Positions 3,416 to 29,933 of a stretch of 32,000 nt of DNA are shown here, piece by piece. Source of the stretch: Candidatus Pacearchaeota archaeon (GTDB lineage: Archaea; Nanobdellota; Nanobdellia; Pacearchaeales; GW2011-AR1); the NCBI GenBank assembly GCA_016186365.1, contig JACPLT010000022.1, forward strand, positions 5,777 to 37,776, given 5' to 3'. Position 1 is the first letter of the stretch. The number at the start of each line of letters is the position of its first letter. The translations under genes and the position numbers were made by a program. The notes under the pieces were generated by a model. The model was not told the DNA's origin. It saw nothing but the letters and a program-made list of their open reading frames with translations, and made no database searches.

Positions 3416-3564
3416 GAAAAATGTATGAAGGGGGAGTTTATAAGAATTTATATTGTAAAATGAAAATAAAAAGGTTTAAAAATGCCTGAAAATTGGAAGA
3501 TAAGTCATTCACTACATCGTTGAATGCAATTTTCTTGCATTAGACGCATTATGTAGGAGACATA

Positions 3565-3648
3565 TTCAAAAATGCACGAAACAAACAGCATTTTTGAAAT
3601 CCAGAAAATCAGGGATTTTCTGGCTTTTAAACTCTGAAGAGATTTAAA
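3565..3648 (+). repeat. Hairpin cassette copy in the L1 operon leader: module A (3565-3598), module B (3601-3623), CTTTT, weak C-like hairpin (3629-3645)
   Basis: A is TTCAAAAATGC / loop ACGAAACAAACA / GCATTTTTGAA. B is CCAGAAAAT / CAGGG / ATTTTCTGG. The same modules recur at 18492, 26515 and 27891. Confidence 0.85.
3572..3637 (+). other. Leader uORF (21 codons, MHETNSIFEIQKIRDFLAFKL) ending 12 nt before the rpl1 ATG
   Basis: The ATG lies inside the 5' arm of hairpin A. The same frame is open in all four A-B copies. Confidence 0.45.
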
Positions 3649-4296
3649 ATGGAAAATAAAACTATACTAGAAGCTTTAAAAAAGCTGAGAGCGAATGAGA
3701 AAAGAAAATTTCCACAGACAGTGGACTTAATTATTAATCTGAAGAATTTTGATATAAAAAGAGAGAGTGTCAATTTATTCTTAAATCTGCCGCATAAAAT
3801 AAAGGAAATAAAAGTGGCAGCATTTCTTGATAAAAAAAGCGGGATTATTGACAGCATTACAAAGCCGGAATTTGAAAGGTATAAAGATAAAAGAGTTATT
3901 AAAAAGCTGGTTAAAAATTATGACTTTTTTATGGCTTCTGCATCATTAATGCCTGCAATTGCATCAGCCTTTGGAAGATATCTTGGAAGCGCTGGAAAAA
4001 TGCCATCTCCACAGCTAGGTATAATAAAAGAGGAGTTAGACAGCGAGATTAAGAAAGTTGTTGAAAAAATGGAAAAAACAATAAAAGTAAAGAGTAAAGA
4101 GCCAAGCTTAAAGTTCGCAATAGGCAATGAAAATATGAGAGATGAAGATATAGCTGAAAATATTATTCTTGCGTATAATACTATACTTAATAGTTTATCA
4201 AAGAAAAAAGAGAATATCAAGTCAATTATGCTAAAATTTACTATGACAAAACCGATAAAATTAGAAGACCAAAAAAATGAAGAGGTGAAAAAGTAA
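3649..4296 (+). CDS. rpl1: 50S ribosomal protein L1 (uL1)
   Basis: uL1-like sequence (FPQTVDLIINLK...) in the conserved archaeal position upstream of P0 and P1. Confidence 0.9.
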   Translation: MENKTILEALKKLRANEKRKFPQTVDLIINLKNFDIKRESVNLFLNLPHKIKEIKVAAFLDKKSGIIDSITKPEFERYKDKRVIKKLVKNYDFFMASASLMPAIASAFGRYLGSAGKMPSPQLGIIKEELDSEIKKVVEKMEKTIKVKSKEPSLKFAIGNENMRDEDIAENIILAYNTILNSLSKKKENIKSIMLKFTMTKPIKLEDQKNEEVKK

Positions 4297-4297
4297 G

Positions 4298-6534: not shown

Positions 6535-6609
6535 GTGGGATACAGGAAATAAATTTCCTGTCTGTTCAACTCTTACGAGATTGAACACAATGGCAAACCA
6601 TTGTCCCAC
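6535..6609 (+). ncRNA. 75-nt cloverleaf-shaped structured element: either a tRNA leader or a non-canonical intron, not a canonical tRNA
   Basis: Closing stem GTGGGA 6535-6540 / TCCCAC 6604-6609. Arms are ACAGGAAAT/ATTTCCTGT (6542-6561), TGTTCAA/TTGAACA (6563-6587) and CAATGG/CCATTG (6588-6603), with 0-1 nt linkers. Confidence 0.45.
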
Positions 6610-6622
6610 AAATATGGCATAT

Positions 6623-16281: not shown

Positions 16282-16289
16282 TCCGAGCG

Positions 16290-16308
16290 AAGCATAATCT
16301 TTATAAAC
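16290..16308 (+). promoter_or_regulatory. Candidate promoter of the ribosomal-protein operon (GAGCGAAGCATAATCTTTATAAAC)
   Basis: A TATA box at 16300-16307 predicts a start site near 16329 and a leader of about 55 nt, with AGGA before ATG 16385. Confidence 0.4.
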
Positions 16309-16384
16309 ACACTTTTTCTATCATTTTTTGAGTTACAATAGATGTGTGGAACATGAGAATAAACATCGTAAATAGGATTTCCAT

Positions 16385-17341
16385 ATGGGAAGAAAAAGCA
16401 AACATCGAGACGGATCATTACAATTTTGGCCTAGAAAAAGGTCAAGCAAGTTCTTACCTAGTGTTAACTGGGATGTTTTAAATGGGGAGAAAGGAATTAA
16501 GGGGTTTATTGCATATAAGGTGGGAATGACTTCCTGCCTTGTCAAAGATACTACTTCTAATTCTCTTACAAAAGATAAAAAAATTGTTCTTGCTGCCAGT
16601 GTTCTGGAAGTGCCTGCTATGAAAATATTTTCTATAAGATTTTATAAAAATGGGATTGTTTCAAAAGAGATAATTTCTGAAAATTTAGACAAGGAATTAA
16701 AGAGAGTGATTAGAATTCCGAAGAAAAAGAGTGAAAATATAGACAGCATTAAAGATTATGATGATATCAGGATTATTGCATATTCAAAAGTTGGAGAAAC
16801 TGGGATAAAGAAAACTCCGGACATGACTGAAATTGGATTGCAGGGAAGCCTGGATGAAAAATTAAAGTTTGTTAAGGAGCACATGAGTAAGGAAATTAAA
16901 TTTTCAGAAATATTCAAGCCTGGAATTCTTGTAGACATAAGAGGATTAACAACAGGAAAGGGATTAGAAAGCTCAATTAAAAGATTTGGATTGGGATTAA
17001 AAGGGCATAAAAGCGAGAAAGGGCAGAGAAGACCTGGAAGCTTGGGGCCGTGGCATCCTGCGCATGTAATATTCAGAGTTCCTATGGCAGGGCAGTTAGG
17101 GATGTTTACAAGAATACAATATAATTCAAAGATAGTTTGTATTGGAAAAATTGCTGAAAAGAATATTAATCCTGAAAATGGCTGGAATGCTTATGGAAAA
17201 ATAAAAACAGAATATATAATTGTTCCTGGAAGTGTTCACGGAACAGCTAAGAGGCAGTTATTGCTGACTAGTCCGTTAAGAGCTACTAAAACCCGAATAA
17301 AAAAACAATATGAATTTGTAAAATTAGGAGATTTGAGATGA
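16385..17341 (+). CDS. rpl3: 50S ribosomal protein L3 (uL3)
   Basis: uL3 sequence (FWPRKRS..., GHKSEKGQRRPGSLGPWHP), first gene of the S10-like cluster. Confidence 0.92.
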   Translation: MGRKSKHRDGSLQFWPRKRSSKFLPSVNWDVLNGEKGIKGFIAYKVGMTSCLVKDTTSNSLTKDKKIVLAASVLEVPAMKIFSIRFYKNGIVSKEIISENLDKELKRVIRIPKKKSENIDSIKDYDDIRIIAYSKVGETGIKKTPDMTEIGLQGSLDEKLKFVKEHMSKEIKFSEIFKPGILVDIRGLTTGKGLESSIKRFGLGLKGHKSEKGQRRPGSLGPWHPAHVIFRVPMAGQLGMFTRIQYNSKIVCIGKIAEKNINPENGWNAYGKIKTEYIIVPGSVHGTAKRQLLLTSPLRATKTRIKKQYEFVKLGDLR

Positions 17342-17436
17342 AACTTAAAATTTATACTAAATTAAACAGAAATTTTAAGATCTTGGAGATTTGTGAATCC
17401 CCAAGCTTTCAAATTCCTGATGGAGATTTGAAATGA
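17338..17436 (+). other. Relay ORF (32 codons, MKLKIYTKLNRNFKILEICESPSFQIPDGDLK) bridging rpl3 and rpl4
   Basis: Its ATG overlaps the rpl3 stop (ATGA at 17338-17341) and its TGA overlaps the rpl4 ATG (ATGA at 17433-17436). It spans hairpins at 17344-17379 and 17407-17433. Confidence 0.5.
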
Positions 17437-18215: not shown

Positions 18216-18451
18216 TAAGCCCGATAACAACTGAAAAAGCAGTAAAATTAATTGAAATAGAGAATACTCTTCTTTTTAAAGTAGACAGCAGAATGGACAA
18301 AGAGGAGATAAAAAGCGAGATTGAAAAATTATTCAATGTGAAAGTTGAGGGAGTCAGAACATTAATGAAAGGAAATGAAAAAGTAGCTTATGTTAAATTA
18401 AACAAAAAGAATCCGGCTATTGATGTAGCAACTAAACTGGGGATGATATAA
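18212..18451 (+). CDS. rpl23: 50S ribosomal protein L23 (uL23)
   Basis: ATGA overlap with rpl4 and a uL23-like sequence (LLFKVDSRMDKEEIKSEIEKLFNVKVEGVRT). Confidence 0.9.
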   Translation: MISPITTEKAVKLIEIENTLLFKVDSRMDKEEIKSEIEKLFNVKVEGVRTLMKGNEKVAYVKLNKKNPAIDVATKLGMI

Positions 18452-18453
18452 AC

Positions 18454-18591
18454 ATGACTAAAGAATTAAATAACCAACAGGAGAAAAACAGTTTAAATAT
18501 GCACGAAACAAATGGCATATTTAAAATCCGGAAAATTAAGAATTTTCCGGCTCTTTCGTTCCGGGGGAACTCAAGATGGGAAAGAGAATAA
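18454..18591 (+). other. Relay ORF (45 codons) from 3 nt after the rpl23 stop, running through modules A-B-C and ending 16 nt inside rpl2 in another frame
   Basis: MTKELNNQQEKNSLNMHETNGIFKIRKIKNFPALSFRGNSRWERE. Through the modules it uses the same frame as the other copies. Confidence 0.45.
18492..18575 (+). repeat. Hairpin cassette copy: A (18492-18525), B (18528-18550), C (18558-18570)
   Basis: A is TTTAAATATGC/GCATATTTAAA with loop ACGAAACAAATG. B is CCGGAAAAT/ATTTTCCGG, showing a compensatory A>G with T>C change relative to the other copies. C is GTTCC-GGG-GGAAC. Confidence 0.85.
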
Positions 18592-19274: not shown

Positions 19275-19275
19275 A

Positions 19276-19320
19276 ATGAAACTTAAAAAATTAAATAAAA
19301 AAAATATTTTAAAAATCTGA
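19276..19320 (+). other. Relay ORF (14 codons, MKLKKLNKKNILKI) starting 1 nt after the rpl2 stop
   Basis: Its TGA (19318-19320) lies in the loop of hairpin AAATC-TGAG-GATTT, 12 nt before the rps19 ATG. Confidence 0.4.
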
Positions 19321-19340
19321 GGATTTATTAAAATGGCAGA
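19307..19340 (+). repeat. 34-nt block TTTTAAAAATCTGAGGATTTATTAAAATGGCAGA, identical to 26575-26608
   Basis: Exact match that includes the start codon and next five bases of both rps19 and rps5. Confidence 0.9.
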
Positions 19341-19749
19341 TTTAGGAAAAAAACCGGAATTTGAAAAGAAGCAGTTTTTTTATAGAGGGAAAACTCTTGA
19401 AGAATTAAAAAAACTTGATACAAGAGAGTTCGCTAAATATGTTCCTGCGAGAGAGAGAAGGACTATACTTAGAAATTTTGATGTTATTGAGGAATTCGTA
19501 AAAAGATGCAATAAAAAAATGGAAAAAGGAAAACAGATAAGAACACATTTAAGAGATATAATAATAGTTCCGCAGATGGTTGGAATGATAATTAATATTC
19601 ACAACGGAAAAGAGTTTACACAGGTAAAAATAGTAGAAGATATGTTAGCCCATAGATTAGGAGAGTTCGCGATAACAAGAAAAGAAATTAAACATGGAGC
19701 TCCTGGAATCGGCGCGACAAAGAGCTCTGCTTCAATGTCAGTTAAGTAA
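19333..19749 (+). CDS. rps19: 30S ribosomal protein S19 (uS19)
   Basis: uS19 motif MLAHRLGEFAITRKEIKHGAPGIGATKSS. Confidence 0.9.
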   Translation: MADLGKKPEFEKKQFFYRGKTLEELKKLDTREFAKYVPARERRTILRNFDVIEEFVKRCNKKMEKGKQIRTHLRDIIIVPQMVGMIINIHNGKEFTQVKIVEDMLAHRLGEFAITRKEIKHGAPGIGATKSSASMSVK

Positions 19750-19758
19750 GGAGAAAAA

Positions 19759-20424
19759 ATGGAACGAGAATATATTAAAAATAAGAATGAACAAAAAAAA
19801 GAAAATGTAGCTGGAAACAAAATAGAAAATCCAAAAGACTTGCCTAAACAGGAAGCTCAAAATGTTGAGAAAAAAGAAGAGGACACAAAAACTGAAATCA
19901 AGGAAGAAGTTAAAACTGAAGAGAAGAAAGGAAAGGAAAAGAAGAAGCAAGAGAGAAAAATAAGAGAGCAGGCAGTTGTTAATGGAAAAGACTTGGGAAT
20001 TTCAAAAAAACAATCAATGGACATATGCAGGTTCATAAAAGGAAAGAGAGTTGAGCAGGCAATTAAAGAGCTTGAAGAGGTGGTTAAGATGAAAAGAGCA
20101 CTGCCTATGAGAGGAGAAATTCCACACAGGCATGGAATGATGTCAGGAAGGTATCCTAAAACTGCATGCGGAGTTTTTATAATGCTGCTTAAAAGTTTGC
20201 AGTCAAATGCGAGCGAGGGGGGAATAATGACTCCTCAAATAATTATGGCAAAGGCGAATAAAGCGTCGAGACCATTCAGAAGATTTGGCTCAAGAAAGTT
20301 CAAAAGAACGCATGTTAGTTTAATTGCAAAGGAATATATAGTGAAAGACACAAATCTTTCCCTATCTAGCAGAGGACATACAGAGAAGTTATCAAAGTCC
20401 TCCGCTATAAGAGCAAAGAATTAA
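19759..20424 (+). CDS. rpl22: 50S ribosomal protein L22 (uL22) with a K/E-rich N-terminal extension of about 70 aa
   Basis: The core starts near GKDLGISKKQSMDICRFIKGKRVEQAI. GGAG lies 9 nt upstream of the ATG. Confidence 0.85.
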   Translation: MEREYIKNKNEQKKENVAGNKIENPKDLPKQEAQNVEKKEEDTKTEIKEEVKTEEKKGKEKKKQERKIREQAVVNGKDLGISKKQSMDICRFIKGKRVEQAIKELEEVVKMKRALPMRGEIPHRHGMMSGRYPKTACGVFIMLLKSLQSNASEGGIMTPQIIMAKANKASRPFRRFGSRKFKRTHVSLIAKEYIVKDTNLSLSSRGHTEKLSKSSAIRAKN

Positions 20425-20454
20425 AGAAAGAAGAAAACAAGGAGAAAAAGTAAA

Positions 20455-21126
20455 TTGGAAGAGAGAAAATTTATACAGCTTAAGAAAGAAGAATTCGGAG
20501 TAAAGGAATACATAAGACAGCAGATAGGAAAGGGAAAGCTTAGTTCGATCTCTATTGAATATACTCCTGTGGGAGAAAAAATAATATTGTCTACAAGCAA
20601 GCCCGGAATGCTTATTGGGAGAGGGGGAGAAAAGATTATGGAGCTGACTGAAATATTAAAGAAAAGATTCAAGCTTGAGAACCCCCATATAGAAATAAAG
20701 GAGATTGAAAAAGGTGAGCTTGATGCGCAGACAGTTGCAGATGAGATTGCAATGTTTTTAGAAAGAATGGGGAGCCTGAAATTCAAGGTAATAGCCTATC
20801 AGATGATTCAAAGAATTATCGCTGCAGGAGCAAAGGGAGTAGAGATAAGGCTGTCTGGAAAGCTTCCAAGCGAAAGAGCAAAAAGCTGGAGATTTGCAGT
20901 AGGGTATCTTAAGAAAACTGGGGATACTGCAAAGGTGGTCAATAAAGGAGAGGCGGTTGCTGAAACAATGATAGGAGTAATAGGGATAAAAGTCGGTTTG
21001 CTTCCACCGGACATAAAAGTTCATGATCAGATAGAAGTAAATCAGGAATTATTAAATCAGATAAAAAAGAATTTAGAAAGTTTAGAAGAGAAGAAAGAAG
21101 AGAACAAAAAAACAAAGAACAAATAA
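20455..21126 (+). CDS. rps3: 30S ribosomal protein S3 (uS3), TTG start
   Basis: KH-domain GMLIGRGGEKI. GGAG at 20441-20444 lies 10 nt before TTG 20455. The C-terminal tail is K/E-rich. Confidence 0.88.
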   Translation: MEERKFIQLKKEEFGVKEYIRQQIGKGKLSSISIEYTPVGEKIILSTSKPGMLIGRGGEKIMELTEILKKRFKLENPHIEIKEIEKGELDAQTVADEIAMFLERMGSLKFKVIAYQMIQRIIAAGAKGVEIRLSGKLPSERAKSWRFAVGYLKKTGDTAKVVNKGEAVAETMIGVIGIKVGLLPPDIKVHDQIEVNQELLNQIKKNLESLEEKKEENKKTKNK

Positions 21127-21127
21127 A

Positions 21128-21310
21128 ATGGCAATAATAAAAAACAAAGAAATTAAAAATTTGCAGAAGAAGGACATAGAGGAAAAATTAAAAGAATTAA
21201 GAATGGAGTTGGTGAAGAAGAATGTAACTGCAAATAAATCCGGGAAAATAAAAACAAAAGAAATTAAAAAGGCAATTGCCAGAATACTCACACTGTTAAA
21301 CAAAAAATGA
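21128..21310 (+). CDS. rpl29: 50S ribosomal protein L29 (uL29)
   Basis: 60-aa helical protein in the conserved position after rps3. Confidence 0.85.
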
Positions 21311-21606
21311 ACATATGTCCAAAATGCGGTTTACCAGAGCAAGCATGTGTCTGTGCGGACATCGCAAAAGAAGAACAGAAAATAAGAATAGGGACAGTGA
21401 AAAGAAAGTTCGGAAAGATAACAACTGTTGTCGAGGGATTTGACAGCGGAATTGACATAAAGGAAATAGCCAAAAAGTTAAAAAACGAACTTGCCTGCGG
21501 AGGAACAGTAAAAAACAACTCCATAGAACTGCAGGGAGATCACACCAAGAAGATAAGACCTGCTTTGGTAAAGTACGGGTTCAGAGATGAACAAATAACT
21601 GAGTAA
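21307..21606 (+). CDS. Translation initiation factor aSUI1 (aIF1)
   Basis: N-terminal Cys cluster [13 protein letters not shown] and the SUI1 motif [22 protein letters not shown] overlap with rpl29. Confidence 0.85.
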
Positions 21607-21613
21607 AACAAAA

Positions 21614-21979
21614 ATGAAACAAGAAAAAAATGAAACAATAGTGGAAAGCAACAAAAACAGCTGTAATGATAGCCAGTGCAATATTCATTCTGGGTTAAAA
21701 GTCAGAGGAAGAACATTTGACGGCTATGTTACTAAGAAGTTTAACAGAAGAGTTGTAATTGAATTTGAAAAAATAGTTTATATCAAGAAATATGAAAGAT
21801 ATACAAAGAGAAAAACAAAGCTTCATGCGAGAGTTCCATCTTGTGTTCAGGAAAAAGTTAAAGTTGGGGATTATGTCAAGGTAGGAGAGTGCAGACCATT
21901 AAGCAAGATTATTCATTTTGTATTTTTAGAAAAAATAAGAGATGCTGACAAGAAAAATAATGAAGGAGATTTGAAATGA
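21614..21979 (+). CDS. rps17: 30S ribosomal protein S17 (uS17)
   Basis: CNDSQCNIH...RGRTF N-terminus and VGDYVKVGECRPLSK. Confidence 0.85.
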   Translation: MKQEKNETIVESNKNSCNDSQCNIHSGLKVRGRTFDGYVTKKFNRRVVIEFEKIVYIKKYERYTKRKTKLHARVPSCVQEKVKVGDYVKVGECRPLSKIIHFVFLEKIRDADKKNNEGDLK

Positions 21980-22377
21980 AACCAGTATCCGCAAAAACAA
22001 CAAAAGCGTTGAATATAGGAAGCATGGTTAATGTTGCAGACAACTCTGGAGCAAGAATTGCAAGAATAACTGGAGTTAAGGGGGGAAAAGGAAAGAAAGG
22101 GAGACAAATGGGATGCAAGCTTGGAGACTGGGTAAAAGTTTCTATAAGAGCTGGAAATCCTGAAATGAGAGGGCAGTTAATGGACGCTGTGGTGATAAGA
22201 GTAAAAAAGCCATACAGAAGACTAACTGGAGAGAGAATTGCTTTCACAGACAATGCAGTAGTAATATTAAAAGATGAAAAGGGAAATCCAAAAGGAACGC
22301 AGATTAAGGGACCTGTTCCTAGAGAGATACAAGAAAGATGGAAGGAGGTTTCCAAATTATCCGGGATAATAATATAA
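21976..22377 (+). CDS. rpl14: 50S ribosomal protein L14 (uL14)
   Basis: VADNSGAR motif and ATGA overlap with rps17. Confidence 0.92.
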   Translation: MKPVSAKTTKALNIGSMVNVADNSGARIARITGVKGGKGKKGRQMGCKLGDWVKVSIRAGNPEMRGQLMDAVVIRVKKPYRRLTGERIAFTDNAVVILKDEKGNPKGTQIKGPVPREIQERWKEVSKLSGIII

Positions 22378-22378
22378 G

Positions 22379-22837
22379 ATGAAACAAAAATTTTCAACCG
22401 CTTGGATAGGAAGCAGACAGCCGAGGAAGCAGAGAAAATTCAGAGAGAATGCTCCGCTTCACATAAAGAGAGAGATGCTCGCGGCAAACTTAAGCAAAGA
22501 GTTAAGAAAGAAACTTGGGAGAAGAAGCATAATTGTAAGGAAAGGAGACATGGTCAAGATAATGAGGGGAGAGTTCAGAGGGAAGACTGGAAAAGTGAGT
22601 GTTGTGGAAACAAAGGATACAAGAGTGGCAATAGAAGGAATACAAAGGCAGAAGAAAGAGGGTTCAAAAGTGAATGTTTATTTTAATCCTTCAAATTTGC
22701 AGATTACAGAAGCAAATACAGAAGACAAGAAAAGAATAAAAATTGAAGAGAAGAAAGAGGAAGCGAAAACAGAAGGAAAGAAGAAAGAAGATAAAAAAGA
22801 AAAACAAGGAGAAAAAAATGCACCTAACAAGAAATGA
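22379..22837 (+). CDS. rpl24: 50S ribosomal protein L24 (uL24) with a K/E-rich C-terminal extension
   Basis: KOW motif VRKGDMVKIMRGEFRGKTGKV. The tail is EDKKRIKIEEKKEEAKTEGKKKEDKKEKQGEK. Confidence 0.88.
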   Translation: MKQKFSTAWIGSRQPRKQRKFRENAPLHIKREMLAANLSKELRKKLGRRSIIVRKGDMVKIMRGEFRGKTGKVSVVETKDTRVAIEGIQRQKKEGSKVNVYFNPSNLQITEANTEDKKRIKIEEKKEEAKTEGKKKEDKKEKQGEKNAPNKK

Positions 22838-23450
22838 AATACCTGTAAAATGGAGAGTCCAAAAGAAAGGGACAAAATATGTAGTTACAACAAGGTACTG
22901 CAAAGATAAATCTATTCCTGTTCTTGTTGCTCTTAGAGACATGCTTAAACTGGGGCAGGACAGGAGAGAAGTTGAAAAAATACTGGATATGAGCAAGATT
23001 AAAATTAATGGAAAAATAATAAAAGAATCAAGATACCCTGTAACAATTTTTGATATTCTTAATATTGGAGATAAAAACTATAGAATGATTATCCAGAATA
23101 AAAAGTTCAGTTTAGAAGAAGTTTCCGGAAAAGAGGCAAATGAAAAGATAGCAAAAGTTATTGGAAAAAAAGTTCTGAAGAAAAAAATAATCCAAATTAA
23201 TCTGGCAGATGGGAGAAATTATAAAACAAAAGAAAAAGCAAAAGTTGGAGATTCAGTAATTATAAATTTTAAAGAGAATAAAATTTCTGAAACTCTTCCT
23301 ATGAAAGATGGAATGAAAGCAATGTTCCTTAATGGAAGCAGGATAGGGAAAGTGGGGGAAATTGAAAAAATAAATGGGAAGGAAGCAATAATAATCCTGG
23401 ACAAAGAGAAAATAAATGCTAAACTAATCAATTTAATGGCGGTAAAATAA
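22818..23450 (+). CDS. rps4e: 30S ribosomal protein S4e (eS4); start moved to ATG 22818 (the track ORF begins at 22743 inside rpl24)
   Basis: MHLTRNEIPVKW is the typical eS4 N-terminus. GGAG lies 7 nt upstream. The gene overlaps the rpl24 end by 20 nt. Confidence 0.85.
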   Translation: MHLTRNEIPVKWRVQKKGTKYVVTTRYCKDKSIPVLVALRDMLKLGQDRREVEKILDMSKIKINGKIIKESRYPVTIFDILNIGDKNYRMIIQNKKFSLEEVSGKEANEKIAKVIGKKVLKKKIIQINLADGRNYKTKEKAKVGDSVIINFKENKISETLPMKDGMKAMFLNGSRIGKVGEIEKINGKEAIIILDKEKINAKLINLMAVK

Positions 23451-23451
23451 A

Positions 23452-23952
23452 ATGGCAAATGTAATGGAAGAGATAAGGATAGAAAAAGTTGTAATAAGTG
23501 TAAGCGGGACTGCGGAAAAGCTTGAAAAAGGAAGAAAATTGCTAGAAATATTGTCTGGAAAAAAACCTGCTAAAATGAAATCAACTAAAAGAATTCCCTC
23601 TCTAGGAGTCCGCCCGGGATTAGAAGTCGGAGCGCTAGTTACATTAAGAAGAAAACCTGCAATTGACCTTCTTAGAAGACTGCTTGCTGCTGTAGATGAT
23701 ACTCTTAAAAGAAGGCAGATTTCAGCAGGGACAGTTTCATTTGGGATAAAAGAGTATATTGAAATTCCAGGAATGCAGTATAACAGGGAGATTGGAATGG
23801 CAGGATTAGATGTGAGCATAAGCTTTTACAGATTGGGAAAGAGAGTTAAGATGAAAAAAATAAAGACTGGAAAGATACCTGCAAAAAACAAGATAAGCAA
23901 AGAAGAAGTTGAAGCATTTTTAGAAAATAAATTAGGAGTGAAATTAAGATGA
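23452..23952 (+). CDS. rpl5: 50S ribosomal protein L5 (uL5)
   Basis: IEKVVISVSG... and EYIEIPGMQYNREIGMAGLDVS. Confidence 0.9.
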   Translation: MANVMEEIRIEKVVISVSGTAEKLEKGRKLLEILSGKKPAKMKSTKRIPSLGVRPGLEVGALVTLRRKPAIDLLRRLLAAVDDTLKRRQISAGTVSFGIKEYIEIPGMQYNREIGMAGLDVSISFYRLGKRVKMKKIKTGKIPAKNKISKEEVEAFLENKLGVKLR

Positions 23953-24053
23953 AAAAACTTAAAAGTTTTTACCTATTAAATTTCAGGAGAAATTTAAGAT
24001 CCAGAAAATCTGATGATTTTCTGGCTTTTGATTTCCGGGGGAAATCAAAATGA
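23949..24053 (+). other. Relay ORF (34 codons, [34 protein letters not shown]) bridging rpl5 and rps14
   Basis: ATGA overlaps at both ends (23949-23952 and 24050-24053). Confidence 0.5.
23953..24049 (+). repeat. Hairpin cassette copy in permuted order: D (23953-23970), C' (23979-23994), B (24001-24024), C (24030-24046)
   Basis: D is AAAAACTT-AA-AAGTTTTT. C' is AATTTC-AGGA-GAAATT. B is CCAGAAAAT-CTGATG-ATTTTCTGG. C is GATTTCC-GGG-GGAAATC. Confidence 0.85.
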
Positions 24054-24280
24054 CTGCAAGCGACTGGAAGAAGATTACGAAACAGCTTAGAAATAAGAAA
24101 GCAAAACTAAGCAAATTCCTAAGACATAATAAACCGAAAGATAGAAAAACAGGAATAGCAAAATATAAATGTGAAAGATGCGGAAGGTTTGGGGCGCATA
24201 TTTCTTCATATAATCTAAATTTATGCAGACAATGCTTCAGAGAGATAGCTGAAGAAATTGGATTTAAAAAATACAGCTAG
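24050..24280 (+). CDS. rps14: 30S ribosomal protein S14 (uS14), zinc-binding type
   Basis: CERCGR...CRQCFRE (two CxxC pairs). Confidence 0.85.
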
Positions 24281-24288
24281 GAGAAAAA

Positions 24289-24666
24289 ATGAGCCAAGAC
24301 ACAATTTCAGATGGATTAAACCAGATAATGAACTGCAAAAGAGCAGGAAAAGATAATGTAGTCATAATTAGGTATTCAAAAGTTTTGATAAATGTACTGG
24401 AGATTGCGAAGAAACAAGGGTATTTAGATTATCAGCTTGATGAAAAAAATAAAGTATTAAGAGTGAAAATAAAAAGCCTGAATGAAGGCAGGGCAATAAA
24501 ACCAAGATTCTATGTTAAAGTTGAAGAAATTGAAAAATATGTAAGAAGATATCTTCCGTCAAGAGAGTTCGGGATAATCTTAATTTCAACAAGCAAGGGA
24601 TTAATTACACAGGCAGAAGCTTATGAAAAAAATATAGGGGGAAGCTTAGTAGCTTATTTTTACTGA
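24289..24666 (+). CDS. rps8: 30S ribosomal protein S8 (uS8)
   Basis: DTISDGLNQIMNCKRAGK N-terminus and GGSLVAYFY C-terminus. Confidence 0.9.
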   Translation: MSQDTISDGLNQIMNCKRAGKDNVVIIRYSKVLINVLEIAKKQGYLDYQLDEKNKVLRVKIKSLNEGRAIKPRFYVKVEEIEKYVRRYLPSREFGIILISTSKGLITQAEAYEKNIGGSLVAYFY

Positions 24667-25205
24667 TGGTGAGAAAACCGATAAAAGATGAAGTTGAAAT
24701 TCCAGAAGGAATGAACGCCGAGATAGTTGGAGATGTAATCAAGATAAGCAAAGATGGAAAGAGTGTTGAGAAAAAAATATGCTACGAAGCAAAGATAGAT
24801 GGAAAAAAGATAGTAATTGAATGCAAAAGCCCCAGTAAAAATGAAAAAAAGCTGATAAAAACTACAAAAGCACATATTAAGAATATGATCAGCGGATTAA
24901 ATGAAAAGTATGAGTATAAAATGCAAATTTGCGCGGTTCATTTTCCTATGACTGTAACAGCTGCAGGGAATGAAGTAATTATTAAAAATTTCCTTGGAGA
25001 AAAAAAAGAAAGAAGGGCACAGATAGTTCCGGATGTAGAAGTTAAAATAGAAAAGGAGTTTATCACAATTAAAAGTGCAAGCAAAGATAAGGCGGGGCAG
25101 ACTGCTGCAAATATTGAAAGAGCAACTAAAATAAAAAATAGAGACAGAAGAGTTTTTCAGGACGGGATATACATAACTGAAAAACAGAAGGGGGCTACAA
25201 GATGA
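24666..25205 (+). CDS. rpl6: 50S ribosomal protein L6 (uL6)
   Basis: TGATG junction with rps8, two-domain uL6 sequence, conserved order. Confidence 0.9.
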   Translation: MVRKPIKDEVEIPEGMNAEIVGDVIKISKDGKSVEKKICYEAKIDGKKIVIECKSPSKNEKKLIKTTKAHIKNMISGLNEKYEYKMQICAVHFPMTVTAAGNEVIIKNFLGEKKERRAQIVPDVEVKIEKEFITIKSASKDKAGQTAANIERATKIKNRDRRVFQDGIYITEKQKGATR

Positions 25206-25252
25206 AAAAACTGAAGTTTTTACCTCTTTCGTTCCGGGGGAACTCAAGATGA
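25202..25252 (+). other. Relay ORF (16 codons, MKKLKFLPLSFRGNSR) bridging rpl6 and rpl32e
   Basis: ATGA overlaps at both ends (25202-25205 and 25249-25252). Confidence 0.5.
25206..25248 (+). repeat. Minimal cassette: D (25206-25221, AAAAACT-GA-AGTTTTT) plus C (25231-25243, GTTCC-GGG-GGAAC)
   Basis: 25224-25251 is identical over 28 nt to 18551-18578 (the rpl2 leader). Confidence 0.85.
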
Positions 25253-25611
25253 AAAATATTAGATTTTTAAGAACAGGAACAAAAAGACACAAGAGATTGG
25301 GAAAGGCCAATAAAAATAAACAGATATGGAGAAGACCGAAAGGAAGGCACAATAAAATAAGGCAAAATGAAAAATCAAAACAAAGAAAAGTTCAAATTGG
25401 ATTCAGAAGCAAACCAGAAGAAAGAGGGAAGATAAAAGGCAAGCCGATGCTGCTAGTCCGGAATATTAAAGAAGCAGAAAATGTAAAGACAGGAGATTAT
25501 GTTATTATCGGAAAAATGGGAAAAAAGAAGAAAATAGAAATTGAAAAAGTCCTGGAAGATAAAAAAGCAGTCATACTTAACAAGAGGAAAGAAAATGAGC
25601 TTAAAAAATAA
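25249..25611 (+). CDS. rpl32e: 50S ribosomal protein L32e (eL32)
   Basis: WRRPKGRHNKIR motif. Confidence 0.85.
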   Translation: MKNIRFLRTGTKRHKRLGKANKNKQIWRRPKGRHNKIRQNEKSKQRKVQIGFRSKPEERGKIKGKPMLLVRNIKEAENVKTGDYVIIGKMGKKKKIEIEKVLEDKKAVILNKRKENELKK

Positions 25612-25981
25612 AAAAATGTTGATTTCAAGAGTACTGAATGTAGGAGTGGGAAGAATAAAACTTAATCCCAATGCTAAAACAGAGATAGAAGAAGCAATAA
25701 CTAGGCAGGACATCAGAGATTTAAAAGAACAGGGGATAATAAGGATTGAAGAAGTTAGTGGAAGAAAAATAGTGGAAAAGAGAAAGAAGAGAAGAGCAGG
25801 AAAAATAAAGAAGAGAGTTGAGGGAAAGGATAGTTATGTTGTGGTTACAAGAAAGTTGAGAGGGTATTTAAAAAATTTGAAGAGCAAGGGGCAGATAAGC
25901 AAGGAAAAATATTATGATTTAAGGAGAAAGACAAAAGCAAGGACTTTTAAGGGACTTTCGCACTTAAAGGAGTCAATATGA
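25595..25981 (+). CDS. rpl19e: 50S ribosomal protein L19e (eL19); start moved to ATG 25595
   Basis: MSLKNKKMLISRVLNVGVGRIKLNP is the typical eL19 N-terminus. The gene overlaps the rpl32e end by 17 nt. Confidence 0.85.
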   Translation: MSLKNKKMLISRVLNVGVGRIKLNPNAKTEIEEAITRQDIRDLKEQGIIRIEEVSGRKIVEKRKKRRAGKIKKRVEGKDSYVVVTRKLRGYLKNLKSKGQISKEKYYDLRRKTKARTFKGLSHLKESI

Positions 25982-26481
25982 TTAAAGTAAAAAAATTAAG
26001 AAGAAGAAAGGGAAAAACCGATTATAGAAGAAGGGTTGAGCTGCTGAAAAGCGGTAAACCGAGAATTGTATTTAGAAAAACAAATAAGTATATTATCGGG
26101 CAATTTGTCATGAGCAAAGAAGCTAAAGACATAGTAACTGAGGGGTTAACTTCAAAAAACCTGCTTAAATATGGCTGGCCAAAAGAAAATATAGGAAGCT
26201 TAAAATCATTAGGAGCCGCATATCTAACAGGATATTTGCTAGGAAAAAGAGTATTAGATAAAGAAGAGAAAGCGGAAGGTATACTAGATATTGGACTGAA
26301 TACCAGTGTAAAAAAATCCAAGATTTATGCTTTTTTGAAAGGGGTAAAAGAAGCAGGAGTAAAAATAGAGTGCGATGAAAAATTATTTCCTGATGAAAAA
26401 AGAATAATGGAAAGCGGGAAAATGAAAAAAGCAGATATTTTTAAAAAAATAAAGGGAGAGATAGATAAGAAACTGGCATAA
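25978..26481 (+). CDS. rpl18: 50S ribosomal protein L18 (uL18)
   Basis: RRRKGKTDYRRR motif and ATGA overlap with rpl19e. Confidence 0.88.
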   Translation: MIKVKKLRRRKGKTDYRRRVELLKSGKPRIVFRKTNKYIIGQFVMSKEAKDIVTEGLTSKNLLKYGWPKENIGSLKSLGAAYLTGYLLGKRVLDKEEKAEGILDIGLNTSVKKSKIYAFLKGVKEAGVKIECDEKLFPDEKRIMESGKMKKADIFKKIKGEIDKKLA

Positions 26482-26482
26482 A

Positions 26483-26599
26483 ATGATAAATAATGAATTA
26501 AATTTTGAGAGAAGTTCAGAAATGCACGAGGCAAATAGCATTTCTGAAATCCAGAAAATCGGGGATTTTCTGGCTTTTAAAAATCTGAGGATTTATTAA
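26483..26599 (+). other. Relay ORF (38 codons, MINNELNFERSSEMHEANSISEIQKIGDFLAFKNLRIY) spanning the rpl18-rps5 spacer
   Basis: It starts 1 nt after the rpl18 TAA and its own TAA ends 1 nt before the rps5 ATG (TAAAATG at both ends). Confidence 0.45.
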
Positions 26600-26600
26600 A
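26515..26600 (+). repeat. Hairpin cassette copy: A (26515-26548), B (26551-26573), SD-loop hairpin AAATC-TGAG-GATTT (26581-26594)
   Basis: A is TTCAGAAATGC/GCATTTCTGAA with loop ACGAGGCAAATA. B is CCAGAAAAT-CGGGG-ATTTTCTGG. Confidence 0.85.
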
Positions 26601-27305
26601 ATGGCAGAAGAACGCAGAGATAGAAGAAGAGACAACAGAAACCCAAGAGAATCAAGATATGGGAGAAAGAGAGAAGAGCCAGAGCCAAAGCCATGGGTGC
26701 CTAAGACAAAGATAGGAAAACTTGTGAAAGAGGGCAAAGAAAAAGATATAGACAAAGTTATAAAAGAGTATAAGATACTTGAGCCAGAAATTATAGATAA
26801 TTTGATAGAAGTTAAATCCGATTTATTAAGCATAGGACAATCAAAAGGAAAATTTGGCGGAGGAAAAAGAAGGGTATGGAGACAGACGCAGAGAAAAACT
26901 GCAGAAGGAAATGTTCCTACATTTGCCTGCTTGTCTGTTGTTGGCGACGAGAACGGGCATGTCGGCATGGGTTATGGAAAAGCCAAAGAGACACCTCCTG
27001 CCAGAGAAAAATCACTAAGAAATGCCAAACTAAATGTTTTTGCTGTGAAGAGAGGATGCGCAAGTTTTGACTGCTCATGCAACGAGTTCCATTCAATTCC
27101 TATGAAAGTTGAAGGAAAGTGCGGAAGCGTAAGAATCATTTTGATTCCTGCACCTCAAGGGACAGGATTAGTTATAGGGGACGAGTGCAAGAAAATTTTA
27201 AGACTGGCAGGAATAAAAGATATTTACAGCAAAAGATTCGGACAATCAAGAACTACAATAAATTATGCCAAGGCGTGCATTGATGCCTTGAAGAAGCTAA
27301 AATGA
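26601..27305 (+). CDS. rps5: 30S ribosomal protein S5 (uS5)
   Basis: Archaeal-type basic N-terminus, GKFGGGKRRVWRQTQRKT, and uS5 domains. Confidence 0.9.
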   Translation: MAEERRDRRRDNRNPRESRYGRKREEPEPKPWVPKTKIGKLVKEGKEKDIDKVIKEYKILEPEIIDNLIEVKSDLLSIGQSKGKFGGGKRRVWRQTQRKTAEGNVPTFACLSVVGDENGHVGMGYGKAKETPPAREKSLRNAKLNVFAVKRGCASFDCSCNEFHSIPMKVEGKCGSVRIILIPAPQGTGLVIGDECKKILRLAGIKDIYSKRFGQSRTTINYAKACIDALKKLK

Positions 27306-27724
27306 TTTGCATTATAAGAATACGCGGACAGATTGGAATAAGATATGACATAGATGAAACCTTATTTAGAATGGGAATTAGAAAGAAATATTCATGCATT
27401 GTTATAAAAGAGACTAAAGAAAATTTAGGAATGCTTGCTAAAATTGAAAATTTTGTAGCATACGGAAAGATAGACAAAGAAATACTGGCAGAACTTATTA
27501 AAAAAAGGGGAAAGGCAATAGGAAACAAGAAAATAGACGCAGAAAAAATAGCTTCAGAATTTGCAGAGGGAAAAATAGACAAAAGATTTTCAGAGCTGGG
27601 AATAAAAGATTTTTTTACACTGCATCCTGCAAGAGGCGGAATGGAGACAAAATTCCACTATCCAAAAGGAGTTTTAGGGAATAATAAAGAGGATATAGCT
27701 AAATTATTGAGGAGAATGTTATGA
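27302..27724 (+). CDS. rpl30: 50S ribosomal protein L30 (uL30)
   Basis: ICIIRIRGQIGIRYDIDETLFRMGIRKK and ATGA overlap with rps5. Confidence 0.85.
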   Translation: MICIIRIRGQIGIRYDIDETLFRMGIRKKYSCIVIKETKENLGMLAKIENFVAYGKIDKEILAELIKKRGKAIGNKKIDAEKIASEFAEGKIDKRFSELGIKDFFTLHPARGGMETKFHYPKGVLGNNKEDIAKLLRRML

Positions 27725-28029
27725 GGAAAAAAGGATTTATAGACAACTGCGCCGCAGCTTGCATTACATCTTTTTCGCAGTTCTCTATCTGTCTAACTGT
27801 ACTAAATTGTCATCTAACCAATGCAGTTATCCATAACAATAGGAGATTTGACAGCAAAAATTCATGCTTGGATAGTATGAATTTAGGCTGCTCAGAAATG
27901 CACGAAACAAATAGCATTTTTGAGACTTCAAGAACTTCAGTTCTTGATAGTTCTCAGAAATTAAAAATTTCTGAAATCCAGAAAATCGGGGATTTTCTGG
28001 CTTTTGATTTCCGGGGGAAATCAAAATGA
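27721..28029 (+). other. 102-codon relay ORF filling most of the rpl30-rpl15 spacer (not a conventional protein gene)
   Basis: Its ATG overlaps the rpl30 TGA (ATGA). Its last 44 codons (MHETNS...) run through hairpin modules A, A2, A3, B and C, and its TGA overlaps the next ATG. Confidence 0.45.
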
Positions 28030-28078
28030 AAAAAACAAATGAATTTTTTGCCTCATTAAATTTCAGGAGAAATTTAAG
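27891..28078 (+). repeat. Expanded hairpin cassette: A (27891-27924), A2 (27929-27946), A3 (27955-27973), B (27978-28000), C (28006-28022), C' (28059-28074)
   Basis: All stems are perfect except for one G-T (G-U) wobble in A. 27992-28029 equals 24016-24053 (38 nt), and 28055-28080 equals 23975-24000 (26 nt). Confidence 0.85.
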
Positions 28079-28082
28079 ATGA
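28026..28082 (+). other. Relay ORF (18 codons, MKKTNEFFASLNFRRNLR), the last link before rpl15
   Basis: ATGA overlaps at both ends (28026-28029 and 28079-28082). Confidence 0.45.
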
Positions 28083-28525
28083 AACTCAAAAAAAATAAAA
28101 AATCAGTAAGAATGAGAGGAACAAGGTTGCATGGCTGGGGAGCTAAAAAACATAAGGGAAAGGGGAATAGAGGAGGAAAGGGGTTTTCTGGAAGCGGAAA
28201 AAGAGCAGACCAGAAAAAAACTTATGTTTTGAAATATCATTTTCCTTATTTTGGAAAACAGGGATACACAAGCAGAAGCACAAAAAGAAACAAACTTCTG
28301 TTCATAAATGCAGGAAATATTGAAACAAGATATAAAGAGGGGGAAATTGATTTGAGCAAGTATAAGATACTGGGAGAGGGAGAGATTAAGAAGAAATATA
28401 TTATAAAAGCCAAAGGGGTTTCTAAATCTGCAAGAGAAAAAATAGAGAAAGCTGGCGGGAAAGTCATGGTTATTGGGGAAAAATTAAAAGAGACAAGAAA
28501 AATAGAAGAGAAAAAGAAAGTTTAA
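28079..28525 (+). CDS. rpl15: 50S ribosomal protein L15 (uL15)
   Basis: MRGTRLHGWGAKKHKGKGNRGGKGFSG. Confidence 0.88.
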   Translation: MKLKKNKKSVRMRGTRLHGWGAKKHKGKGNRGGKGFSGSGKRADQKKTYVLKYHFPYFGKQGYTSRSTKRNKLLFINAGNIETRYKEGEIDLSKYKILGEGEIKKKYIIKAKGVSKSAREKIEKAGGKVMVIGEKLKETRKIEEKKKV

Positions 28526-28550
28526 ATACTAAATTTTTTTATTAATTATC

Positions 28551-29933
28551 ATGAATTTAAACACAATTTTGCATAATTTGCCTGAAATTCAGGGACCAGT
28601 AGAAAAGAAGCTCGCTTTTAACACCAAGCTTAAATGGACTTTAATTGTTCTTGCAGCTTTTTTTATTCTTGCGAATATACCCTTATATGGAATTGCTCAA
28701 AACTCTCTTGATAGATTTGAATATCTTGCGATTATACTAGGAACAGATTTTGGAAGCATAATCTCCCTTGGAATTGGGCCGATTGTTATGGCATCTATCA
28801 TCTTGCAATTGTTAGTTGGAAGTAAGATACTTAATATTGATTTGAAAAGCCCGGATGGAAAGAAATATTTTCAGGGGCTGCAAAAGATAGCAGTATTCTT
28901 TTTTATAATATTTGAGGCATTAGTGTATGTTTTAATGCAGGGGCTGGCAGCAGTTCCAGGATACGCACCAATTGTTATATTCCAGTTATTTTTAGGGGGG
29001 CTAGTAATTGTATTTATGGATGAACTTGTAAGCAAGTGGGGATTTGGCTCTGGAGTTAGTTTATTTATCGCTGCAGGAGTTGGTTGGAGATTATTTACTG
29101 GAATGTTCCAGTTCATAAGCCCGGGAGGAAATTGCTTGCTAGATTTTGACGGGACACCTTGCGCAGGAAAGATATTAATTATTTTCCAGTCTATCATAAG
29201 CCAGAATCCTACTGAAGCACTAAAAGCTGTCGCGGTTTTAGCTGTGACTGCGGGAATATTTTTAGTTATAGTCTGGGCACAATCACTCAAAGTAGAAATT
29301 CCGCTGTCATTTGATAGATTGAGGGGTTATGGAATGAAGTGGCCATTATCTTTCTTTTACACTTCAAATATGCCTGTAATATTAGTTGCAGCTCTTGCTG
29401 CAAATATTCAGTTATTTGCAGGACTGATTGAGAGCTGGCTCGGACATCCTACATTTTTAGGAACTTTTTCACAAGGACAGCCTGTTGCAGGTTTTGCTTT
29501 TTGGATATCTTCGGTGAATATTTTAGATAATCTTATATCCGGCAGTTTTAGAAGTATATTTGCATTGCAAGCACTAACTCACATTATCTTTTATATCGGG
29601 CTTTCTGTTGTTTTTGCATTATTCTGGGTGAAGACATCTGGAATGGATGCTTCCAGCCAGGCAAGGAACATAATGTCTTCTGGATTGCAGATTCCGGGAT
29701 TTAGGAAAGACGAAAGAGTTTTAGAAGTAGTTTTGTCAAGATATATCTTGCCATTGACAGTGATGGGCGGAGCAGCAGTTGGATTGTTGGCTTCTGCTGC
29801 AGATTTGCTCGGAGCATTAACATCTGGGACAGCAATATTGCTTGCAACAATGATAATTTACCAGTTCTACCAGAATATCGCGCAACAGCATGCGATGGAT
29901 ATGCATCCTTCTCTGAAGAAGATGATGGCATAG
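28551..29933 (+). CDS. secY: Protein translocase subunit SecY
   Basis: Ten-TM SecY/Sec61alpha-like sequence in the conserved position after rpl15. Confidence 0.92.
   Translation: MNLNTILHNLPEIQGPVEKKLAFNTKLKWTLIVLAAFFILANIPLYGIAQNSLDRFEYLAIILGTDFGSIISLGIGPIVMASIILQLLVGSKILNIDLKSPDGKKYFQGLQKIAVFFFIIFEALVYVLMQGLAAVPGYAPIVIFQLFLGGLVIVFMDELVSKWGFGSGVSLFIAAGVGWRLFTGMFQFISPGGNCLLDFDGTPCAGKILIIFQSIISQNPTEALKAVAVLAVTAGIFLVIVWAQSLKVEIPLSFDRLRGYGMKWPLSFFYTSNMPVILVAALAANIQLFAGLIESWLGHPTFLGTFSQGQPVAGFAFWISSVNILDNLISGSFRSIFALQALTHIIFYIGLSVVFALFWVKTSGMDASSQARNIMSSGLQIPGFRKDERVLEVVLSRYILPLTVMGGAAVGLLASAADLLGALTSGTAILLATMIIYQFYQNIAQQHAMDMHPSLKKMMA

Follow-up and report, generated by a model that had tools for sequence, protein, structure and literature searches.

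How are spacers of 40 to 350 nt tolerated inside the most stoichiometry-sensitive operons? The question is raised by a 32,000-nt stretch of DNA from a Candidatus Pacearchaeota archaeon (contig JACPLT010000022.1 of assembly GCA_016186365.1, positions 5,777 to 37,776), referred to here as the window and numbered from its first letter, which carries an archaeal ribosomal-protein cluster of the Pacearchaeota (DPANN) type on its + strand (16385-29933). An earlier note on this DNA described short hairpins that hold a Shine-Dalgarno (SD) purine run and end at start codons of the cluster, close to the stop of a through-reading "relay" open reading frame (ORF); it proposed that a terminating ribosome must melt each hairpin before reinitiation can occur. 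We find that all such spacers in the window are bridged by a structured mini-ORF. The hairpins, the SD spacing, and the through-reading ORF proved real and nonrandom; the idea of a stand-alone device, however, did not hold, since each hairpin is the last module of a repeated multihairpin cassette. Established here are the sequence and predicted structure, together with covariation, open and overlapping frames, SD spacing, and a bias in orientation and position. On this basis we model the window hairpins as the 3′-terminal module of repeated, translated intercistronic cassettes that would relay ribosomes from one ribosomal-protein gene to the next and so couple their translation, a reading to which we assign a probability of roughly 55%.

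The gene order of the cluster is L3, L4, L23, L2, S19, L22, S3, L29, SUI1, S17, L14, and L24, followed by S4e, L5, S14, S8, L6, L32e, L19e, L18, S5, L30, L15, and SecY, and an L1-L10-L12 operon lies upstream of it at 3649-5416. Pfam searches confirmed the identities of L4, S14, L32e, L15, L1, L10, L12, and SUI1. The window is A/T rich (34% G+C by the ARAGORN count). Its nearest S5 relative is 79% identical, and the top L5 match among 185,579 species representatives is 63%. Because an independent Logan assembly contig of 1.4 kb reproduces positions 26579-28005 with zero mismatches, both of its ends falling within repeat copies, we take the window spacers to be real rather than an assembly artefact. 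The sequence is also present in SRR12113424. The comparison set comprised 20-kb neighborhoods of 80 related loci (L001 to L080) in metagenome-assembled genomes labeled Pacearchaeota, Woesearchaeota, or Nanoarchaeota. Start codons in these relatives were set by homology and some may be misplaced; many of the apparent L18-S5, S4e-L5, and S19-L22 spacers are probably N-terminal extensions. All hairpins and other structures reported here are predictions, and all features of the two operons and their spacers lie on the + strand.

In the window, predicted hairpins end 0 to 6 nt before the AUG, or on it, at eight genes. Each hairpin described earlier was found in its place; the earlier note spoke of five genes while listing seven, and rpl1 adds an eighth. 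Before rps14, the core GATTTCC-GGG-GGAAATC (24030-24046) belongs to a full 11-bp stem at 24026-24050 with a GGG triloop (free energy of −10.7, z = −2.9). The hairpin GTTCC-GGG-GGAAC stands before both rpl2 (18558-18570) and rpl32e (25231-25243), the former being a copy of the latter, and the rpl15 core AATTTC-AGGA-GAAATT (28059-28074) lies within a 9-bp stem at 28056-28077. The core AAATC-TGAG-GATTT precedes rps5 (26581-26594) and rps19 (19313-19326), and at rps19 it extends to 19305-19335, where the stem includes the AUG. At rpl4, the arms TTTCAAAT...ATTTGAAA span 17407-17433 (free energy of −8.8, z = −2.2), and the 3′ arm does end on the A of the ATG. The eighth hairpin (3625-3649) ends on the rpl1 AUG. 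The stems had been given as 5 to 8 bp; cores of that length are present, but several stems are longer (9 to 11 bp) and reach to or through the AUG. The reported distance of 7 to 10 nt from purine run to ATG stands. Three pairs are repeat copies (L2/L32e, S19/S5, and S14 with an internal copy at 28006-28022), leaving about five independent hairpin types, and the 34-nt stretch at 19307-19340 is 100% identical to 26575-26608.

Predicted energies of the window hairpins range from −3.0 to −10.7 kcal/mol at 37°C and from −7.8 to −16.9 kcal/mol at 10°C, with per-hairpin z scores of −2.9, −2.2, −1.8, −1.5, −1.0, −0.5, −0.3, and −0.2; the minimum-energy fold of the full L18-S5 spacer omits the rps5 hairpin. 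Short junctions of the same cluster had been said to use a plain, unstructured GGAG. This is correct, although the true positions are 19750, 20441, and 24280, so that the first, given as 19744, was off by about 6 nt. Among six such junctions (L22, S3, S8, S4e, L14, and L18), four fold at 0 kcal/mol, L22 at −2.6, and L18 at −3.6, and none has structure exceeding the shuffle expectation.

To score the arrangement, we counted as a motif any perfect stem of 5 or more Watson-Crick pairs that encloses a loop of 3 to 14 nt, ends 0 to 8 nt before the start codon, and has its SD core either in that loop or where the 3′ arm begins. The window has this motif at 7 of 8 long junctions versus 1 of 15 short ones. 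When the window and the 80 related loci are taken together, 77 of 425 long junctions carry it, whereas dinucleotide shuffles average 14.3 and never exceed 20. Short junctions of the same set (31 of 1,133, versus 27.8 expected) and nonribosomal ORFs of the same loci (9 of 266, versus 7.6 expected) are at background. Among the 77 hairpins there are 54 different 5′ arms. In hairpins of 6 bp or more, the 3′ ends cluster 0 to 4 nt from the ATG (42 versus 13.5 expected); there is no surplus at 5 to 14 nt and a broad twofold surplus farther upstream. The shuffle, short-junction, and nonribosomal-gene controls rule out chance in A/T-rich DNA as the source of the pattern.

A second property of these junctions is the reading frame that crosses them. 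An open frame bridges every long spacer of the cluster, beginning on the upstream stop codon or 1 to 2 nt past it, and the joint chance that all eight relay frames would stay open is about 10^−6.7. Between rpl3 and rpl4, a relay ORF of 32 codons (17338..17436) overlaps the rpl3 stop and the rpl4 start by ATGA and crosses hairpins at 17344-17379 and 17382-17405. The 45-codon relay ORF from rpl23 to rpl2 (18454..18591) begins 2 nt past the rpl23 stop and ends 13 nt within rpl2, and that following rpl2 (19276..19320, 14 codons) ends in a UGA within the loop of the rps19 hairpin, overlapping its GAGG. The rpl5-to-rps14 relay (23949..24053, 34 codons) has ATGA at both ends, as does the 16-codon relay ORF from rpl6 to rpl32e (25202..25252), whose first hairpin is at 25206-25221. 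From rpl18 to rps5 the frame runs for 38 codons (26483..26599). After rpl30, a 102-codon ORF (27721..28029) with ATGA at both ends and no Pfam match crosses seven hairpins; it is followed by an 18-codon relay ORF (28026..28082), again with ATGA at both ends, which ends on the rpl15 start. The claim that relay stops lie inside or just past the hairpin was borne out: relative to the ATG they fall at +1 for L4, S14, L32e, and L15, at +13 for L2, at −4 for S5, and at −15 for S19. ATGA overlaps mark five of eight relay starts and five of eight relay ends, the remaining ends being those at −15, −4, and +13 nt. The rpl1 leader (3550..3651) is organized similarly, with an SD-in-loop hairpin, TATGT-AGGAG-ACATA (3550-3564), two further hairpins, and an upstream ORF (3572-3637) whose stop lies in the loop of the terminal hairpin at 3625-3649. 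At both the S19 relay and the rpl1 upstream ORF, the stop codon in the loop overlaps the SD (UGAGG and CUGAAG, respectively).

The window spacers are assembled from repeated modules. Module H1, TCAGAAATGC-ACGAAACAAATA-GCATTTCTGA, has four copies in the window, and module H2, CCAGAAAATC-GGG-GATTTTCTGG, has five, each joined through the linker CTTTT to an SD hairpin downstream. An H1-H2 module precedes rpl1 (3565-3598 and 3601-3623), rpl2 (18492-18525 and 18528-18550, inside the rpl23-rpl2 relay ORF), rps5 (26515-26548 and 26551-26573), and rpl15, where the 102-codon ORF contains H1 at 27891-27924, hairpins at 27925-27951 and 27954-27974, H2 at 27978-28000, and an rps14-type SD hairpin at 28002-28026, ahead of the next relay ORF. 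The rps14 spacer has H2 without H1. Module X, with two hairpins of its own, has three copies: one in the rpl5-rps14 spacer (hairpins at 23953-23970 and 23976-23997), where module Y, made up of H2 (24001-24024) and the SD hairpin, is fused to it, and the cassettes before rpl32e and rpl15. The order is X-Y between L5 and S14 and is reversed, Y-X, between L30 and L15. Whole-spacer folding z scores range from −3.1 to −6.6, except for the two shortest spacers (−1.6 and 0.0); the rpl5-rps14 spacer scores −5.9, and the L30-L15 spacer, comprising the 102-codon ORF and the next cassette, scores −6.6.

Pairing within these modules is conserved. Across the H2 copies (five from the window, two from relative L031, and one from relative L028), 98.7% of cells are paired, and 7 of 10 pairs are changed on both sides, with zero one-sided changes. 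The stem compensations are nonsynonymous in the through-reading frame (CAG/CTG to CGG/CCG, that is, Gln to Arg and Leu to Pro); hence it is the pairing that is conserved, not the peptide, and peptide conservation as the driver of the pattern is ruled out. A C/D-box small RNA was also rejected, as CUGAUGA occurs in one H2 loop only and no D boxes are present. Separately, the H1 loop ACGAAACAAAUAG (3576-3588, 18503-18515, 26526-26538, and 27902-27914) is more conserved within the genome than its own covarying stem; L031 has a 33-nt loop in its place, and no complementary (kissing) partner for it was found in the window.

Dozens of relatives show the same architecture with other stems and with compensatory changes. 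The best-defined group, family A (ATGAAAGCAAATCAAAGATTTTCATTCATCCAAAA...GGAGGT.ATTTTGAATGA), is about 50 to 56 nt long and is present in many of the 80 loci. Its mini-ORF of 17 to 19 codons (MKANQRFSFIQK..GGYFE*) has ATGA overlaps at both ends; hairpin 1 includes the mini-ORF AUG, and hairpin 2 has GGAGGT within its loop and ends 1 to 4 nt before the next AUG. In an alignment set picked solely by a match to the 5′ 29 nt, five of six pairs of the SD helix are double-changed (pair 34-56, for instance, is GC in 11 copies, AU in 10, GU in 1, and UA in 1), and 85% of cells are paired versus at most 51% in slid controls, a value reached by 0 of 500 shuffles. Covariance model R1 retrieved about 42 copies (E < ~0.01), all on the gene strand; the end of 38 coincides exactly with an identified ribosomal-protein start, and the 27% of the examined DNA that lies outside the clusters contains none. 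Nearly all family A copies terminate in the ATGA or ATGG of the next gene. The commonest junction is S17-L14, then L5-S14 and L22-S3; copies also occur at L24-S4e, S5-L30, L19e-L18, S8-L6, L4-L23, and S4e-L5, and tandem copies are seen. Further subfamilies follow the same plan, for example, TAAAATGAAAAATAAATTTTTC...CAAAAT-TAGGAG-ATTTTG-CATAATG.

From the architecture described above, four features recur in the cassettes: (i) a start codon that overlaps or abuts the upstream stop; (ii) an open mini-ORF, usually of 14 to 45 codons, running through at least one hairpin; (iii) a last hairpin whose loop or 3′ arm holds an SD (GGAGG, AGGAG, GAGG, or GGGGG) 7 to 12 nt before the next start; and (iv) a stop codon that overlaps the next start or lies within a few nucleotides of it. 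At 74 of the 77 junctions with an SD hairpin, an ORF ends between −20 and +15 nt relative to the start, and at 48 its stop and the start overlap. The window modules X and Y are, by sequence and structure searches, diverged members of this cassette family. R1 reaches Y weakly (E = 0.49), model R2, built from Y-type copies, retrieves X-type copies, and homologs of X and Y lie at other junctions in L031 and L028. Window modules H1, H2, H3a, and H3b were absent from the 80 loci at the mismatch thresholds used; the L031 and L028 modules emerged through structure-aware searches. A metagenome scan with the H1 pattern ATGCACGARRCAAAYRGCAT gave 11 matches, all attributable to chance and mostly in GC-rich DNA, and none with the element. 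Among 16 testable copies, the nearest neighbor was in the same genome at another junction for 6, in another genome at the same junction for 5, and in another genome at another junction for 5. These mixed results indicate that cassettes are inherited, duplicated, and relocated.

Two further observations concern family A. L14, the commonest neighbor of the cassette, begins with the same 11 nt as the cassette itself (ATGAAAGCAAT), and the version at the S3 junction begins like S3 (ATGGAAGAAA). Some predicted folds of copies in alignment A1 also pair the CAT of hairpin 1 with the downstream AUG, a hint that alternative structures may form.

Whether these purine runs could serve as ribosome-binding sites depends on the anti-SD. 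Neither the window nor the 80 related loci include a 16S gene. The usual archaeal 16S 3′ end is ...CACCUCC. Before starts, GGAGG is enriched 9.6-fold, GAGGT 6.8-fold, and AGGAG 6.7-fold, and the hexamers GGAGGT (47 versus 4.3 expected, 11-fold) and GAGGTG (11 versus 1.9, 5.8-fold) behave likewise. This enrichment agrees with that 3′ end and is indirect evidence of a canonical anti-SD. GGGGG, which the earlier note had paired with the anti-SD through one G-U pair, stands at the GGAGG position in homologous cassettes of several relatives; its own enrichment is modest (about 3-fold for GGGGGT and none for GGGGGA). SD-to-AUG spacing in the hairpins of the clade is 8 to 12 nt, equal to that of unstructured SDs.

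How might such a cassette work? A ribosome leaving the upstream gene would reinitiate on the relay ORF, and its translation of that ORF would unwind the hairpins. The relay ribosome would then terminate atop the next AUG, where the freed, single-stranded SD could retain it for reinitiation on the downstream gene. When no ribosome passes, the last hairpin would refold over the SD-to-AUG spacer (in the window, over part of the SD as well) and would limit entry of free small subunits. The cassette would in this way restore coupling over a spacer that would otherwise break it, and the spacer would stay covered by ribosomes; being translated, it would escape the polarity that acts on untranslated RNA (PMC12548453). 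Termination-reinitiation is abolished by a gap of about 20 nt in both Haloferax and E. coli (PMC10666635), and because reinitiation is this sensitive to distance, a long spacer would need a bridging ORF. Among the established coupling models is the unfolding of occluded binding sites by ribosomes (PMC12548453), and the contribution of SD motifs to reinitiation is variable (PMC6728339). The proposed melting of the hairpin by a terminating ribosome matches two published models of coupling, RNA unfolding and termination-reinitiation (PMC12548453, PMC6728339, PMC10666635), which the relay would combine. Translation of the relay ORFs, reinitiation, and gating by the hairpin are what we infer from the sequence, and strict coupling and stoichiometry, which the earlier note had taken to be enforced, would be a further inference from it.

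The earlier proposal that the hairpin buries the SD needs qualification. It is true of the window, where UCC pairs with the GGA of GGAG at rpl4 and CC with GG at rps14, rpl2, and rpl32e; with the SD partly paired in this manner and loops of only 3 to 4 nt, sequestration is plausible there. It fails across the clade: in 60 of the 77 hairpins, all 4 nt of the SD core fall inside the loop, and these loops are mostly of 9 to 14 nt.

Several observations weigh against the relay model. The window hairpins are individually weak at 37°C (−3 to −10.7 kcal/mol), and SD hairpins of the relatives are weaker, their median energy being −1.2 kcal/mol at 37°C (marginal) and −5.6 kcal/mol at 10°C (solid). The SD core that is mostly unpaired in a large loop across the clade is contrary to simple burial. 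H1 and H2 covary as strongly as the SD hairpins do, though without an evident role in initiation. Counts of G·U versus A·C (9 versus 21) give no sign of RNA-specific pairing. Because many cassette copies are homologous, the counts in the chance tests are not fully independent. Finally, copies in a tRNA leader (6540-6593) and in an extension of L22 in L028 indicate that modules have spread beyond junctions.

The tRNA-leader copy, retrieved by R2, is a two-hairpin module of the family outside the ribosomal-protein genes (6540..6593, + strand). The adjacent tRNA gene (6622-6720, + strand) has a 15-nt intron in its anticodon loop and a long variable arm; it was missed by default ARAGORN and by Rfam, and ARAGORN with introns calls it Thr(tgt), although it could be a Ser(UGA) tRNA with a canonical 37/38 intron. 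Upstream, 6529-6609 is a partial duplicate of the first ~19 nt of this tRNA, that is, of its 5′ end, split by a 47-nt insertion of the cassette family, and the segment CCATTGTCCCAC that follows the split duplicate is the complement of tRNA nt 8 to 19. Because the region is a tRNA gene with a split 5′ duplicate, the ORF at 6527-6730 is spurious. In L028, a two-hairpin module (552-606) sits in frame within a Lys/Glu-rich N-terminal extension of L22, and hairpin modules can therefore land inside coding sequence.

Such copies bear on the question of whether the elements serve the operon at all. Selfish or neutral hairpin repeats, spreading by duplication, recombination, or transposition, might have entered ATGA overlaps; in essential operons, only insertions preserving the open frame, the SD, and the overlaps would survive, and the hairpins would reflect spreading and history rather than translational control. 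Junction occupancy does vary among genomes, copies at different window junctions are 100% identical, X and Y occur in swapped order, tandem copies exist, and the nearest relative of a copy lies at another junction of the same genome in 6 of 16 cases and at another junction of another genome in 5 of 16. The repeats break short-read assembly, copies have reached the duplicate in the tRNA leader and the L22 coding extension, and the ATGA seen at both ends might have arisen as a target duplication (or be needed for function). We nevertheless consider this explanation unlikely: all 42 significant copies are sense and none lies in the 27% of DNA that flanks the clusters, no transposase domain was found among the window ORFs, the position of the last hairpin is tied to the start codon and leaves the SD at working distance, and the SD helix has been kept by compensatory changes across long divergence. 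A selfish origin and a relay function are also compatible, as the cassettes could have begun as mobile elements and still serve a function. In this spirit we suggest, tentatively, that they are portable, translated relay mini-cassettes of Pacearchaeota/Woesearchaeota-type DPANN archaea that colonize stop-start overlaps of ribosomal-protein genes, move between junctions and possibly genomes, and are retained for transmitting or tuning ribosome flow; this broader proposal is possible rather than probable.

The remaining explanations assign the hairpins another function. The stem might display the SD, exposing the purine run in its loop as a landing or standby site for independent initiation, with the relay ORF serving mainly to avoid polarity or decay; untranslated RNA triggers archaeal polarity via FttA (PMC12548453). 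The clade pattern looks more like display than burial (60 of 77 hairpins have their entire SD core in the loop, 53 loops are of 7 to 14 nt, and stems are weak and A-U rich), and display fits the clade better than the window, where loops of 3 to 4 nt with one to three SD bases paired leave too little free for the anti-SD without melting. The 3′ arm also covers the SD-to-AUG spacer, which is single-stranded in the initiation complex, and stop-start overlaps are far commoner than display needs, all of which makes it rather improbable. An RNA-binding protein, such as an excess ribosomal protein, might instead use H1, H2, or the SD hairpin as an operator to repress several genes, or H2 with CUUUU might act as a translation-sensitive attenuator. 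The same H1-H2 module does stand before rpl1, rpl2, rps5, and rpl15, the H1 loop ACGAAACAAAUAG varies less than its covarying stem within the genome, and three H2 copies fit a hairpin-plus-T-run pattern. Rfam, however, gave zero matches at the gathering score for the whole window and zero even at E ≤ 1 for 16200-28600, the H1 loop is not conserved in L031 and lacks a complementary partner in the window, and terminator-like sites number 6 versus 5.8 in shuffles, with T runs of just 4 nt; we regard such control as highly unlikely. It is hardly credible, lastly, that the A/T-rich arms are TATA boxes of internal archaeal promoters that yield short-leader transcripts of the downstream genes. A/T-rich boxes such as TTTAAAAA do lie upstream of several starts, and SecY genes of the relatives have a conserved CTTTAAAAAC about 26 to 33 nt before the ATG, but the cassette box appears, as read by eye, to be about 5 nt nearer the ATG than the SecY box, leaderless transcripts need no SD, relay frame, or stop-start overlap, and the compensatory changes keep pairing rather than a TATA sequence. 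A scan restricted to bacterial-type signals (sigma-70 promoters and terminators) found no excess over shuffles. Among these readings we favor the relay model, in which the terminal hairpin would be opened by the ribosome that reads through the cassette.

Other features of the window and of the related clusters were noted. Upstream of SecY, the window has GTTTAAATAC (28526-28550) where relatives have CTTTAAAAAC, about 26 to 33 nt before the ATG and with no SD; this conserved box looks like a TATA box for a leaderless or near-leaderless transcript. The clusters of the relatives contain 204 inserted ORFs of at least 40 amino acids (aa) at varying junctions (e.g., in L051, L038, L042, and L028), nearly all joined to both neighbors by a 4-nt overlap or a 1-nt gap, and 182 of them lack a similar partner. 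The few insert families are a DEDD-exonuclease-like protein of ~210 aa at L4-L23 (10 loci), a 155-aa protein at L19e-L18 (4 loci), and a MazG-like protein at L30-L15 (4 loci). The 5′ part of the 102-codon ORF of the window (27721-27890) is outside the recognized modules, highly structured, open, and without a Pfam match; it may be a small gene like these inserts or more relay. On the − strand, adjoining paralogous ORFs at 7142-9037 and 9113-12211 (630 and 1,031 aa) share blocks of 80 to 84% DNA identity, and one has a bacterial Ig-like domain; both are probably surface proteins. A MazE-like antitoxin and a ParE-like toxin, overlapping by 7 nt, are encoded at 30791-31302 (+ strand).

If the relay model is correct, a minimal archaeal translation system would keep its ribosomal proteins coupled across insertions, and the cassettes would be a natural analog of engineered bicistronic designs, offering parts of about 50 to 56 nt for archaeal expression control. 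If the cassettes are portable as well, they would represent a class of operon-embedded element not yet described. Were the selfish reading true, a repeat family would be persisting in essential operons through mimicry of coupling signals. In both cases, automated annotation will mistake these spacers for hypothetical small proteins or intergenic DNA.

Short, multicopy, modular hairpin repeats that are cotranscribed in operons, occur in near-identical copies, and break assemblies are familiar as REP/BIME, the pneumococcal BOX, and the Neisseria Correia elements, along with miniature mobile elements. The cassettes resemble these in being multicopy, modular, and hairpin forming, with near-identical copies per genome; unlike them, in the DNA examined here, they are found only in sense orientation, are bounded by start and stop codons, hold an SD at working distance, and are nearly confined to ribosomal-protein clusters. 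SD-occluding RNA thermometers (fourU and ROSE) consist of short, weak, A-U-rich stems over the SD/AUG region, and the stability of the cassette stems is likewise strongly temperature dependent, but the cassette motif is tied to a through-reading ORF and recurs at many genes of one operon, and temperature control is without support here. Hairpin-occluded binding sites and stop-start overlaps are themselves already known; a full-text literature search, limited to searchable texts, returned nothing on ribosomal-protein operons of DPANN archaea that contain structured relay mini-ORF cassettes.

The closest parallels are in translational coupling. In the E. coli rpmI-rplT, MS2 coat-lysis, and f1 gene VII-IX systems, coupling operates through RNA unfolding (PMC12548453). 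As in the cassettes, the downstream binding site lies in a local hairpin and the upstream frame runs into or through it; in contrast, the cassettes couple a dedicated mini-ORF to a real gene in a portable repeat found at many junctions, and most relatives leave the SD core unpaired in the loop. Termination-reinitiation (Huber et al. 2019, PMC6728339; 2023, PMC10666635) shares with the cassettes the ATGA/TAATG overlaps at their borders and an SD inside the upstream frame, whereas here two serial overlaps surround a structured mini-ORF, a relay of a kind absent from both of those studies. In the synthetic bicistronic design, a leader cistron of about 16 to 19 codons holds the SD of the target and ends overlapping its start, and the helicase activity of the ribosome clears local structure (PMC5995908; bioRxiv 10.1101/2023.02.09.527918). 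The cassettes have the same short leader ORF, with the downstream SD and an end over the downstream start, but they are natural, archaeal, and internal to operons, contain conserved hairpins, and, apart from the rpl1 leader, would be fed by reinitiation rather than by a promoter-proximal SD of their own.

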